Assembly: GCF_030013595.1 (NCBI RefSeq)
Contig: NZ_CP122773.1
Source of the DNA: Escherichia coli
GTDB lineage: Bacteria; Pseudomonadota; Gammaproteobacteria; Enterobacterales; Enterobacteriaceae
DNA: 5,880 nt
Strand: one strand, 5' to 3'
The translations under genes were made by a program, and so were the position numbers. Of the stretch, positions 1,731-4,329 are shown one piece after another. Within the stretch, counting starts at the first letter, position 1. The number at the start of each line of letters is the position of its first letter. The notes below the pieces were generated by a model. That model did no database searches. It worked only from the letters and a program-made list of their open reading frames with translations, and was not told the DNA's origin.

Positions 1731-1759
1731 GGTACGTACAAACTGTTGTTATGTTAAAT
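1731..1759 (+). other. XerC/XerD core recombination site (cer-like, variant central region)
   Basis: GGTACGTACAA (1731-1741; 10/11 to cer XerC arm GGTGCGTACAA), 7-bp central ACTGTTG (1742-1748), TTATGTTAAAT (1749-1759; identical to the dif XerD arm, 10/11 to cer TTATGGTAAAT). Confidence 0.7.
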
Positions 1760-1781
1760 ACTGATGGGCTTTCCTGATTGA

Positions 1782-2696
1782 TTATCCGAAGATCAATCCC
1801 CAAACACTTTTAGCTACAGAAACAATGGCTTTCTTGGCGACTTTAGCCACTGACGCTATTGGTTTAGGTAGTACGGTGTCTATTATATCATCAATAGCTC
1901 TATCTACGGTGTCTGCGAACCCGTCCTTTGCCGTTTCTACAATTTCTTTTGTTTTTATTTCGTCTTTTACTTGATGCACCACTCCGCTCTGTGCTTCCTT
2001 TGGGAGCGATCTTACTATTGCCTCCACTAACCTTGAAATGTTATAACCTTCATTCGCAGATACAGATATAACGGGATGTTTGGTAAAACCGAATCGTTCT
2101 ATTAAGTATTCTTCCTTTTTTCTAATATTTATTTGTTGTGAGGGTGATGGTTGGTGTTTTTCTTCATCCCATTCGCGGAATGGCTCAATCTTGTCGACTT
2201 GGTTTAAAACAAACAACACTTTTTCATCACCACCAACTGGTTTTAAAACATTTTTATAAAAGTGCTCATCAGCTGAAAATGCTCGATCATCACCTTTAAC
2301 AACCCAAAGCACCAGATCTAATTCTGGGAGAAGATTTTTATACAACTCTTCATATTCTATATCTTTAGCTTCATTTTCACCTACACCTGGTATATCTATT
2401 ATTTTAATTGTTCTATCACCAAATGAAATTATTAATTCCTGAACCTTTCTCGTGCATGCTTCTACATCACTCACTGCACATACATTACCTTTAAAGATAG
2501 AATTACATAGGCTGGATTTACCAGCGCCGGTTTTACCCATAATCCCTATTACTGGTTCGTAATTAATAACATTTCTAATTTTGTTATAGACAGACTTGCG
2601 AATCTCTTTAGGTAGAACATCCACAGCTTCTTTGATTAATTTTATACCTTGCGTATTGTTTTCCATAGTTACTATTTTCCTCATTTTGTTGTTCAT
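1782..2696 (-). CDS. P-loop GTPase, YfjP/YeeP/YkfA-like (50S ribosome-binding GTPase / MMR_HSR1-type domain)
   Basis: Walker A GKTGAGKS (nt 2514-2537, minus), G3 DIPGVGE, G4-like NQVDK; stretch VIGIMGKTGAGKSSLCN...DxPGVGE...LDLVLW resembles E. coli prophage GTPases YfjP/YkfA as I recall them. Start is ambiguous: ATG at 2696 lies 5 nt after the upstream gene stop; ATG at 2666 has an AGGAA 9 nt upstream; the track's ATG at 2753 gives a K/R-rich extension overlapping the upstream gene and has no SD. Confidence 0.8.
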   Translation of the reverse strand: MNNKMRKIVTMENNTQGIKLIKEAVDVLPKEIRKSVYNKIRNVINYEPVIGIMGKTGAGKSSLCNSIFKGNVCAVSDVEACTRKVQELIISFGDRTIKIIDIPGVGENEAKDIEYEELYKNLLPELDLVLWVVKGDDRAFSADEHFYKNVLKPVGGDEKVLFVLNQVDKIEPFREWDEEKHQPSPSQQINIRKKEEYLIERFGFTKHPVISVSANEGYNISRLVEAIVRSLPKEAQSGVVHQVKDEIKTKEIVETAKDGFADTVDRAIDDIIDTVLPKPIASVAKVAKKAIVSVAKSVWGLIFG

Positions 2697-2701
2697 ATGA
2701 A

Positions 2702-3136
2702 TTAACGGAAGCTTGTTTTTCTTTCTTCTTTTTCTTCCCCGCATACAGAACATTTGTAATGGCGATAGGTATCAGAACTCCCACTAAGATACCAATTGTG
2801 TCTTTTACCATGAACTCGCTCTGTAAAACATCTCACGCATCTTTCTTTCACATTGCAATAATCATCGACTGCAATTTCAACAAATCTTTCATGCCTTTCG
2901 CCTTCTTGTTCAGCGCCACAGTCGATACACTTTTTTACAGTTGTGCACTTGAAATCGTATTTATAATTTTCCTCTCCGTATTTATGCTGTTCTTTTTGTA
3001 TAGTGCGATTGCAGTCAGGGCATAGTTTAGAATATTTACAAGTCTCACCATCAATAAGCTTATAGTTTCCTCCGTGTATACCTACCCCACACTTAGCCTT
3101 GATTGCTGCATTTTTTATGCTATCCCAAAAGCCCAT
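2702..3136 (-). CDS. Cysteine-rich putative zinc-binding protein (three tandem C-x5-C-x2-C...H modules plus terminal CxxC)
   Basis: 144-aa ORF; SD GGGAG 8 nt upstream of ATG at 3136; 12 Cys; C33-x5-C39-x2-C42, C64-x5-C70-x2-C73, C94-x5-C100-x2-C103 with periodicity ~30 aa, each followed by His, and C129-x2-C132; AT-rich like neighbours. Confidence 0.75.
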   Translation of the reverse strand: MGFWDSIKNAAIKAKCGVGIHGGNYKLIDGETCKYSKLCPDCNRTIQKEQHKYGEENYKYDFKCTTVKKCIDCGAEQEGERHERFVEIAVDDYCNVKERCVRCFTERVHGKRHNWYLSGSSDTYRHYKCSVCGEEKEERKTSFR

Positions 3137-3181
3137 GGAAAAATCTCCCTACGATTAGTTGATATAAGTTGAACAATTCAT

Positions 3182-3225
3182 CGACATGATTATACACGTA
3201 TAGTGTGTGGATATATAAAAATGAG
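3182..3225 (-). promoter_or_regulatory. Candidate sigma70 promoter for the zinc-ribbon/GTPase operon
   Basis: Perfect TATAAT on the minus strand (complement of 3189-3194) about 46 nt upstream of the 3136 start codon; -35 is weak (TATATA-like); AT-rich intergenic region. Confidence 0.3.
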
Positions 3226-3363
3226 TATGGATTTATGCTCTGTATAATGTTGTTGTTATATTAAATATAGAGCTGAAAAAGTGGGGGCACTGGATAAACT
3301 TCGTGTTTTTCCCGCAAAGATAGTATTGGAAAGTCATTGTCTAATTCATCCAAGATAAATATT

Positions 3364-4176
3364 TTACGAATTTGTGAGTTTGCTTGAGATTTTTATATAT
3401 TCAGCCTTTATTAACTCATTGCCATATTTTTTCTCGAGCCTTTTAACAATGAAATGACCTCGAGCCATATCTTGATAATAGTCGGTAAACATTGTGTTTA
3501 ATGTGGCTCCAGTTAGTGCTCCAATAACGGGAACGACTTGAGCTGCCATTTTTTCCGTAATAACTATACCAAATCTTGTTGCAACTTTTTCTATTAACGA
3601 AGCTAACCATTTTCCTGTTTGTACTGAAGATGCGTTTTTGACAGCAATGTTAGAAATTTCTTTGGATAAATCTTGTACGATCTCGGCAGTCAAACTTCTT
3701 GTTGCATAGTATGCAGTATTAGCTGCATCATCGTCATCAGATGGTCCTCCCAAGGAAAACACCTCTAAGCAGGCCAGTTTGGTATCAATATTATCTAGCT
3801 CAAAACCTTCACTTCTTGCTATGTCAGCAATTGAACGAAGCATAATTGTCGTTGAAACCGGTAACTCAATTGCTAATGCAGAAAAGCCAAAAGCGCCACC
3901 AATGGCTCCAGATACGGCCGCAAAGAATTTATTTGTCTTAGTTGATGCTATTCGGTTAGGTTCATTGTCTAGACTCCATAAGGCTGCATCAGCAGCTTTG
4001 TGGAGAGATTTTTCTACTAGACTATAAATTTGCTCTTCTGCCCCTTTGGGAAGTTTACTCATTAAGTAATCTATTGGGGTTCCAACTAATTGGGTTAATG
4101 TTTCAGTAATTGTATCTTGTTCTAATAATTCTACGGCCCTTTCTAAAGCCCGCAGATCTCCTTCTTCAAGATGCAT
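3364..4176 (-). CDS. Hypothetical protein, possibly EcsC-family-like
   Basis: 270-aa ORF; AAGGA 8 nt upstream of ATG at 4176; Gly/Ala-rich hydrophobic segments (AAVSGAIGGAFGFSALAIELPV, VVPVIGALTGATLNTMF), acidic patch GGPSDDDD; overall impression matches EcsC-family proteins but this is from memory, not a search. Confidence 0.7.
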   Translation of the reverse strand: MHLEEGDLRALERAVELLEQDTITETLTQLVGTPIDYLMSKLPKGAEEQIYSLVEKSLHKAADAALWSLDNEPNRIASTKTNKFFAAVSGAIGGAFGFSALAIELPVSTTIMLRSIADIARSEGFELDNIDTKLACLEVFSLGGPSDDDDAANTAYYATRSLTAEIVQDLSKEISNIAVKNASSVQTGKWLASLIEKVATRFGIVITEKMAAQVVPVIGALTGATLNTMFTDYYQDMARGHFIVKRLEKKYGNELIKAEYIKISSKLTNS

Positions 4177-4329
4177 ATAATGAATCCTTTATGAATCAAT
4201 CGATAGTCTACTTTTGTAAGTGATTCGTCTTGGGAGCTTACCTTGAGCGAGTTCAGTGATTCAATAGGCGAGATGCCGACATCATTGTTGTCTGTGAAGC
4301 AGGAGTGATGAAAAGATCAAAGGATCCTC

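Follow-up and report, generated by a model that had tools for sequence, protein, structure and literature searches.

A 144-residue protein from a small Escherichia coli plasmid carries a triplicated Cys3His beta-hairpin unit and is a candidate zinc-stapled rod of a large, unnamed repeat superfamily

The window analysed here, meaning the whole stretch of 5,880 nucleotides from Escherichia coli contig NZ_CP122773.1 (assembly GCF_030013595.1), amounts to roughly an entire ColE1-type mobilisable plasmid of about 5.9 kb, with MobA, MbeB, MbeD, an origin region and Rop as backbone genes. Its minus strand carries a cargo region (1750-4300) with three genes, which encode an EcsC-family protein, a Cys-rich protein of 144 residues and a GTPase of 294 residues. 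The Cys-rich protein is the subject of this study. We judge its open reading frame (ORF) to be a real gene, since it is annotated (as "hypothetical protein", WP_021551691) and conserved at 28 to 65% identity in homologs across Gamma- and Epsilonproteobacteria; more distant structural relatives occur in Actinobacteria and Bacteroidetes. The gene and the parts of its product are as follows:

2702..3136, minus strand: coding sequence of the 144-residue Cys/His repeat protein, with the stop codon TAA at 2702-2704 and conserved homologs
3145..3150, minus strand: Shine-Dalgarno sequence AGGGAG, read from the sequence, 8 nucleotides before the ATG of the Cys-rich gene
3074..3136, minus strand: N-cap, residues 1-21, with the conserved helix MGFWDSIKNAAIKAKC ending in C16-x4-H21, which would give two ligands of the first site
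2984..3073, minus strand: repeat 1, residues 22-51, with C33, the knuckle C39-x2-C42, H51 and predicted strands 34-38 and 45-49
2891..2983, minus strand: repeat 2, residues 52-82, with C64, the knuckle C70-x2-C73, H82 and predicted strands 65-70 and 76-80
2798..2890, minus strand: repeat 3, residues 83-113, with C94, the knuckle C100-x2-C103, H113 and predicted strands 85-90, 95-100 and 106-111
2705..2797, minus strand: C-cap, residues 114-144, with predicted strands 115-120 and 124-129, then the bare knuckle C129-x2-C132 with no upstream Cys or downstream His of its own

Two further ORFs, at 2608-2811 (minus strand, 67 residues) and 2759-3025 (plus strand, 88 residues), overlap the gene and the gene junction and were rejected as spurious, apparently by-products of the AT-rich sequence, the 144-residue frame being the conserved one.

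The translation places Cys at positions 16, 33, 39, 42, 64, 70, 73, 94, 100, 103, 129, and 132 and His at positions 21, 51, 82, 109, 113, and 126. The motif C-x5-C-x2-C is present exactly three times, starting at residues 33, 64, and 94, which reproduces the cysteine positions given in a preliminary description of this DNA. When the sequence was shuffled 200,000 times with its composition preserved, 5.8% of the shuffles contained the motif at least once and 0.002% at least three times. Self-alignment of the repeats, proposed in that description as a check of the triplication, gave z = 5.9 for repeats 2 and 3 and z = 3.8 for repeats 1 and 2 when compared with shuffles, and single-repeat hidden Markov models (HMMs) built from the family alignment recover the other repeats in register, with independent E-values from 1e-4 to 4e-6. 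The triplication is real and far beyond chance.

Conservation was assessed over 30 stand-alone homologs at 28 to 65% identity. Sixteen positions are invariant or near-invariant, namely C16, H21, C33, C39, C42, H51, C64, C70, C73, H82, C94, C100, C103, H113, C129, and C132, with a mean majority-residue frequency of 99.4% in these columns versus 37% in the other columns of residues 24-140. The non-ligand columns of the N-cap reach a mean of 65% versus 37% elsewhere. C16 and H21, which had been overlooked before, are likewise invariant and belong to the ligand system. The His noted after each motif stands for H51, H82, and H113, found at 8, 8, and 9 residues past the third Cys, and not for H109 and H126, which are kept in only 40% and 23% of the homologs. 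The terminal C129-x2-C132 is present as described, though not as an extra element; it appears to be a C-terminal cap that completes a fourth site. Twelve invariant Cys and four invariant His are enough for exactly four Cys3His sites.

The protein is hydrophilic (isoelectric point 8.4, grand average of hydropathy -0.98, net charge about +4), and neither a signal peptide nor a transmembrane segment was found. It is a soluble, cytoplasmic protein, and the lack of both features together with the strong hydrophilicity means that the cysteines should be reduced, making metal binding far likelier than disulfides. Invariant Cys and His that come in fours in a cytoplasmic protein, as they do here, are what is generally expected of structural Zn binding. 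The isoelectric point and net charge do not strongly suggest nucleic-acid binding.

AlphaFold2 (AF2) was run twice, with alignments of 11 and 30 sequences, and reached a mean predicted local distance difference test (pLDDT) score of 89.1 and 91.6, respectively, all five models of the second run being at or above 90.6. Both runs yield the same secondary structure, a helix from residue 2 or 4 to residue 17 followed by 10 to 11 strands only (34-38, 45-49, 53-58, 65-70, 76-80, 85-90, 95-100, 106-111, 115-120, 124-129, and 135-139), with strand 53-58 only partly assigned in the second model. The predicted template modelling (pTM) score is low, 0.58 to 0.64, despite the high pLDDT. No helix follows residue 17 in either model, and the ligands after H21 all lie in strands or turns. 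We considered the N-terminal helix as an amphipathic membrane-targeting helix and rejected this, with a hydrophobic moment the same as in shuffles (p = 0.29); the helix is also kept in long cytoplasmic relatives as part of the cap. The protein is thus predicted to be an internally repeated, metal-chelating, all-beta Cys/His module. Of the zinc-ribbon or treble-clef-like units suggested in the preliminary description, the ribbon-like style holds, with CxxC knuckles at hairpin tips in an internally repeated all-beta protein, whereas the treble clef does not, as there is no helix past residue 17.

To describe the metal sites, we denote the first Cys of a repeat as a, the two Cys of its CxxC knuckle as b and c, and its His as d, with a prime marking the next repeat. 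A five-residue predicted strand separates C33 from C39, and another separates C42 from H51, placing the members of each pair at opposite ends of a hairpin, where they are unable to share a metal. In the models, the hairpin base would hold the first Cys and the His of the repeat, and the CxxC knuckle would sit at the tip. At the C-terminus, the strands 115-120 and 124-129 are joined by a turn of only three residues (121-123), and this tight turn brings H113 directly opposite the C129-x2-C132 knuckle.

A survey of the array ends, covering 149 arrays parsed from 161 relatives, revealed a clear capping pattern. C-x4-H opens 114 of the 149 arrays before the first full repeat, and a bare CxxC without its own upstream Cys or downstream His closes 111 of them, while both the upstream Cys and the downstream His are present for 390 of 405 internal knuckles. 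This is the pattern expected if each site is composed of the Cys/His pair of one repeat and the knuckle of its neighbour, and it is unexpected for self-contained fingers. Since array length varies between 3 and 10 knuckles, a ring closed by contact of the two caps is disfavoured.

Covariation, calculated as mutual information with average product correction (MI-APC) over 404 adjacent-repeat pairs, points in the same direction. It recovers the beta1/beta2 ladder within a repeat (a+4:c+4 at 0.25 and a+2:d-3 at 0.15), which makes the first Cys face the residue immediately preceding the His of the same repeat. A weaker antiparallel ladder between beta3 of repeat n and beta1 of repeat n+1 (d+7:a'+2 at 0.09 and d+5:a'+4 at 0.07, with the inter-repeat 99th percentile being 0.072) would, when extrapolated, bring the His of one repeat to face the knuckle of the next. 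Eight pairs above 0.05 fall in the block of the base of repeat n and the knuckle of repeat n+1, and none in the block of the opposite offset; a control block within one repeat is also noisy, so that this line is suggestive only. A search for co-loss of ligands in degenerate repeats found no clean case among 11 irregular ones, which are too few.

Together, these observations favour the four sites {C16,H21,C39,C42}, {C33,H51,C70,C73}, {C64,H82,C100,C103}, and {C94,H113,C129,C132}, an assignment we consider probable. Each repeat would form a beta-hairpin with the CxxC knuckle at the tip and the Cys/His pair at the base, and each metal would be bound by the base pair of one repeat and the knuckle of the repeat that follows. 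Sixteen invariant ligands would then build four tetrahedral sites, most probably for structural Zn2+, and the metals would tie each repeat to the next, making a stiff, extended all-beta rod, with the ends capped by the N-terminal helix with C-x4-H and by the C-terminal bare CxxC. We hold this zinc-stapled, capped beta-rod with good confidence. The idea of tandem self-contained units, contained in the preliminary description, is hence kept for the repeats, which are real, and given up for the sites, which appear to be shared between neighbours according to the capping pattern, strand geometry, and covariation.

The most serious competing assignment is the opposite offset, in which the knuckle of repeat n pairs with the base of repeat n+1, giving {C16,H21,C33,H51}, {C39,C42,C64,H82}, {C70,C73,C94,H113}, and {C100,C103,C129,C132}, so that the array ends in a classical Cys4 ribbon and the units stack head to tail. 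None of the 16 ligands is left over in this scheme either, and both caps are accounted for; C100xxC...C129xxC is spaced as zinc ribbons typically are, and a bead-like rod would fit the low pTM at high pLDDT. The opposite offset needs, however, three ligand-role substitutions at the caps against one in the favoured scheme, the turn 121-123 puts H113 rather than C100 and C103 beside C129 and C132, and its covariation block lacks any pair above 0.05; we therefore regard it as unlikely, although by no means negligible. With either offset, the sites would be interleaved in sequence and the metals would staple consecutive repeats together. Three self-contained zinc-ribbon or treble-clef fingers with one zinc each, and a separate C-terminal finger made of C129-x2-C132 and other residues, are how the sequence motif would naturally be read, and the C-terminus has weak, sub-threshold zinc-ribbon matches. 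This arrangement is improbable, as the predicted strands part C33 from C39 and C42 from H51 by roughly 17 to 25 Å, too far for one metal, and as it gives no role to the invariant C16 and H21 or to the bare terminal knuckle, despite the caps in 114 and 111 of 149 arrays; moreover, a treble clef finds no helix, and the covariation ladders set the His opposite the knuckle of the following repeat. Least probable is that, in place of structural zinc, there is a redox or iron protein (rubredoxin-like or Fe-S sites) or an exported peptide rich in disulfides. Cys3His and Cys4 sites can bind Fe, and a rubredoxin-like domain is matched weakly, below threshold (E = 0.098), but a strongly hydrophilic protein with no signal peptide or transmembrane segment should be cytoplasmic with reduced cysteines, no Fe-S maturation genes or redox partners occur in any homolog context viewed, and the invariant histidines argue against a purely disulfide structure.

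Returning to the favoured rod with shared sites, several points weigh against it. The site assignment comes from secondary-structure logic, parsimony, and weak covariation. Iron is an alternative to the probable zinc for Cys3His sites. Two Leclercia-type homologs (P0008 and P0009, from loci L009 and L017) lack C103; a three-residue deletion takes its equivalent and leaves three obvious ligands at one site of an otherwise intact protein. Finally, the arrays of two relatives (P0046 and P0048) stop after a His, with no terminal knuckle, leaving an unpaired Cys/His unexplained. Both proteins contain EAD7, and their N-terminal mini-arrays break off at the second His; the unpaired Cys/His, which directly precedes the EAD7 domain, might be completed in trans, e.g., by zinc-mediated dimerisation.

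Among named folds, the closest in kind is the zinc ribbon (e.g., the C-terminal ribbon of TFIIS or TFIIB; Pfam Zn_ribbon families), which likewise is all-beta, with CxxC knuckles at beta-hairpin tips and a structural metal, and C100xxC...C129xxC of the 144-residue protein has ribbon-like spacing. A zinc ribbon, however, is a self-contained unit of about 30 to 40 residues with two knuckles and one Zn, whereas the unit described here has one knuckle and a Cys/His pair, with sites apparently shared by adjacent repeats and with arrays of 3 to 10 units that carry dedicated caps. Only C100xxC...C129xxC could form a two-knuckle ribbon site, and the modelled strand geometry and the covariation favour H113 and C94 as partners of C129 and C132. 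Treble clefs, in which a knuckle and a helix N-terminus provide the ligands, were seen in neither AF2 model.

The closest concept is the N-terminal CHY/CTCHY region of Pirh2 (RCHY1), which, as described by Sheng and colleagues in 2008, reportedly forms a left-handed beta-spiral, its three small beta-sheets being aligned by three interleaved zincs. There, interleaved, cross-braced zinc sites would hold consecutive small beta-sheets together, as suggested for our protein, while repeat length and ligand pattern differ. The CHY zinc finger (Pfam ID PF05495) has no match in the 144-residue protein and one match among 76 long relatives, at E = 8.5e-3, and neither sequence nor fold searches link the protein to Pirh2. 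A structural zinc-binding hairpin is already known, so that the unit is not categorically new; what would be new is the capped, variable-length repeat architecture, for which there is no solved structure.

A word-indexed search yields 13 close relatives only, none with a Pfam domain. The HMM search against 1.84 billion cluster representatives extends the family to 390 proteins (E <= 1e-3), with 95 reaching E <= 1e-10; many of the relatives are long (up to 1046 residues) and repeat the unit 3 to 10 times with a period of 31 to 32 residues. For the 144-residue protein and eight relatives, nothing significant was found for the repeat in Pfam, NCBIfam, PADLOC 2.0, or PHROGs. The best Pfam matches of the protein itself are non-significant (E = 0.68 to 7), with no Zn-ribbon profile at E < 0.1, and the rubredoxin-like domain of NCBIfam mentioned above stays far below the cutoff. 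Zinc-ribbon Pfam profiles (Zn_ribbon_*, DZR, and TFIIS-type) match sporadically, each in a single one of the 76 long relatives. The family-profile HMM has zero matches to PDB sequences at E <= 10, and the fold comparison against the PDB returned no match to the model. The statement in the preliminary description that no named family could be assigned therefore holds. In AFDB50, only uncharacterised relatives were found, besides low-TM matches to Gram-positive surface proteins (LRR, Ig-like, and dockerin), which we regard as generic beta-hairpin similarity and not as homology.

We found no description of the repeat array in the literature searched, including two papers of the Aravind laboratory on conflict systems (one of them Kaur et al. 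2020, PMC7159879), and no mention of the accession numbers. The "cysteine-rich repeats" tied to phage att sites in the rusticalin study (PMC7379824) are eukaryotic, defensin-like, and disulfide-bonded, and were set aside as unrelated. The 144-residue protein is, in our reading, a minimal stand-alone member, with three full repeats plus caps, of a large unnamed superfamily of roughly 31-residue Cys3His beta-hairpin repeats.

The domain fusions of the 76 long relatives include EAD7 in 9 to 10 proteins and CHAT, in TPR-CHAT proteases, in two; weaker matches indicate TIR-like or Nuc_deoxyrib_tr-like (nucleoside-deoxyribosyltransferase-like) domains, lipocalin-like domains, and a DnaJ. EAD7 is a homotypic adaptor that, as proposed by Kaur et al. 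(2020, PMC7159879), brings effectors to NTPase-based conflict systems. In such systems, repeats such as TPR and WD40 act as sensors or adaptors and are coupled to EADs, and the long relatives combine the array with EAD7, TPR-CHAT, and TIR-like domains at such positions. Unlike those systems, the 144-residue protein itself has no EAD, NTPase, or effector domain.

The stand-alone homologs are found in varied surroundings. A related-locus search with the 11-sequence alignment returned seven viral and four genome loci. In Mixta the homolog is solo, in the mutS-rpoS variable region or island, and it is also solo in lambdoid prophages, where it lies in the nin/Q region on the opposite strand; in Pseudomonas prophages it lies downstream of NinG/Q-like genes, and in Leclercia it adjoins an O-antigen acyltransferase-type gene. 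In Yersinia islands it is upstream of a gene for a 621-residue JukA-like protein, with Lamassu-like, DO-GTPase/GAP1, and PDC-S26 genes close by, although at the one locus near DO-GTPase/GAP1 genes, insertion sequence genes lie in between. Another homolog is upstream of a gene for a McrB-like AAA protein.

The 621-residue protein downstream of the Cys-rich homolog is conserved in the Y. enterocolitica islands L005, L006, and L007 (6761-8627). Similarity to JukA, of the Juk anti-phage system, covers its first 235 residues (E = 4e-50), and the remaining approximately 385 have no match, so that the protein may be a fused or variant Juk system. At L007, a PDC-S26/PDDEXK_4 gene comes next after it.

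On the plasmid, the Cys-rich gene is accompanied by the following features:

1731..1759, plus strand: Xer-like (cer/dif-like) core site GGTACGTACAA-ACTGTTG-TTATGTTAAAT, left cassette edge
1782..2666, minus strand: gene for the 294-residue GTPase of the YkfA/YfjP/YeeP family, with G1 GKTGAGKS, G3 DIPG, and G4 NQVD, downstream of the Cys-rich gene
2678-2682, minus strand: putative Shine-Dalgarno sequence of the GTPase gene, GAGGA, from the sequence
3189..3194, minus strand: putative own promoter of the cassette, a perfect TATAAT -10-like hexamer with a poor -35, a weak candidate from the sequence
3237..3266, plus strand: second Xer-like site GCTCTGTATAA-TGTTGTTG-TTATATTAAAT, right cassette edge, in the same orientation and with a weaker XerC arm
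3364-4176, minus strand: EcsC-family gene, a cargo gene with a PADLOC match

The cargo is AT-rich, with a GC content of 33 to 40% versus 52 to 58% in the mob/ori backbone, indicating a foreign origin. From the cer and dif consensus, we take the two sites at 1731-1759 and 3237-3266 to be candidate Xer sites. Their XerD arms agree with TTATGTTAAAT at 11 of 11 positions on the left and 10 of 11 on the right, and a pattern scan for the right site gave one match versus zero expected. Next to the left site, near 1767, homology with other ColE1 plasmids breaks off, and homology with 3.27-kb EcsC-only plasmids begins at 3370, about 100 bp outside the right site. From the sites and these breakpoints, the Cys-rich and GTPase genes seem to move together as a single cassette, and the sites suggest that it was acquired or exchanged by Xer-mediated recombination. 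Exchange of this kind has been reported for other ColE1-type plasmids. The Cys-rich gene would be the first of this AT-rich two-gene cassette and is probably co-transcribed with the GTPase gene, which starts (2666) 35 nucleotides past its stop codon with no terminator-like structure in between, a plausible Shine-Dalgarno sequence preceding each gene. A consensus promoter scan reported none on the minus strand at the TATAAT hexamer.

The GTPase is 44% identical to E. coli ykfA and shares the G1, G3, and G4 motifs with the YkfA/YfjP/YeeP GTPases of CP4-type integrative elements. Those are normally found alone or beside WYL, AlpA, or Ag43 genes without a Cys-rich partner, unlike on this plasmid. 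We found no function for YkfA, YfjP, or YeeP in the literature. The preliminary description had proposed that the Cys-rich protein could act as a nucleic-acid or protein sensor or regulator for this GTPase. Taken as a dedicated subunit, it would bind a nucleic-acid or protein trigger and gate the activity as part of a two-component system. The arrangement on the plasmid speaks for it, with both genes on the same strand, 35 nucleotides apart, similar in AT-rich composition, and enclosed in one cassette with Xer-like sites at the edges. Both genes are also intact at 99% identity or more in all 11 E. coli genomes and 8 plasmid-collection records with the whole module, and the DO-GTPase family, unrelated to the plasmid GTPase, often has N-terminal zinc ribbons (Kaur et al. 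2020, PMC7159879). Beyond the plasmid, the pairing is lost. A tblastn search found no GTPase homolog within about 5 kb at 25 other loci encoding Cys-rich homologs (36 to 65% identity), and none of five GTPase-homolog loci examined on plasmids and islands has a Cys-rich neighbour, including that of the closest paralog (65% identity), which adjoins a WYL gene. Homologs of the Cys-rich gene stand solo in prophages and islands or beside unrelated self-contained systems, no GTPase domain is fused in the 76 long relatives, and the two genes co-occur only in the roughly 5.9-kb plasmid lineage. A dedicated regulator role is therefore not a property of the family and, as an explanation of the protein, is rather unlikely; a lineage-specific partnership within this cassette is possible, although not probable.

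For the function, we tentatively favour a rod that would serve as a binding or recognition scaffold, or as an adaptor, in conflicts with phages or mobile elements, the 144-residue form acting alone or, in this cassette, together with the GTPase. Three lines point to such a role. Only the ligands and the N-cap are conserved while the rest of the surface varies freely, which is typical of a recognising scaffold; the stand-alone genes occupy accessory slots, namely prophage morons, defence islands, and small plasmids; and the long relatives are fused to EAD7, CHAT, and TIR-like domains. On the other side, defence-island membership is circumstantial, a tblastn search of the INPHARED phage collection gave no match to the protein, and no PADLOC or PHROG family matches it. 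This role is clearly less certain than the proposed structure, and for the explanation as a whole, structure and function together, we see the balance as even. A still broader possibility, which we consider less likely than not, is that the roughly 31-residue Cys3His unit is an undescribed repeat fold of variable length, used as a recognition module of immunity and conflict systems in the manner of LRR, TPR, and WD40 arrays, with the forms of about 145 residues being single-gene phage-exclusion factors, decoys, or adaptors upstream of NTPase effectors (the YkfA-type GTPase here, and McrB-like and JukA-like proteins elsewhere).

If the proposed architecture is true, it represents a new way to build rigid rods of adjustable length from tiny metal-stapled hairpins, and a unit with neither a solved structure nor a library profile is of interest for structural biology and protein design. 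With 390 representatives, positions in prophage moron and defence-island slots, and fusions to immune domains, the family could represent a recognition module of bacterial immunity that has so far escaped notice. The tempting label "zinc-finger regulator of the GTPase" is removed from annotation as unsupported. The cassette on the 5.9-kb plasmid is, furthermore, small and experimentally tractable.

Near-identical plasmids (99.2 to 100%) are held by E. coli, Klebsiella, and Salmonella. Of 5426 complete E. coli genomes, 11 carry the cassette of Cys-rich and GTPase genes, in every case on a plasmid of about 5.9 kb. For the EcsC-family gene, PADLOC gives a match to PDC-S29, a "phage defence candidate" (E = 2.7e-10), and no terminator lies between this gene and the Cys-rich gene; the 3.27-kb ColE1-type plasmids carry the EcsC-family gene alone, at about 91% nucleotide identity. 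The best PADLOC similarity of the GTPase is to the dynamin-like LeoBC/LeoA (E = 8e-12). Residues 266 to 294 or thereabouts of the GTPase (1782-1870, minus strand) form a hydrophobic amphipathic tail, PIASVAKVAKKAIVSVAKSVWGLIFG, with a maximum KD19 value of 1.2, which may be a membrane-association element. The sole 100%-identical match to the module is CP100018.1, an E. coli record whose 12,915 bp are about double the usual 5.9 kb. The DNA search found two matching places in it, so that a multimer, a cointegrate, or an assembly artefact may lie behind this record.

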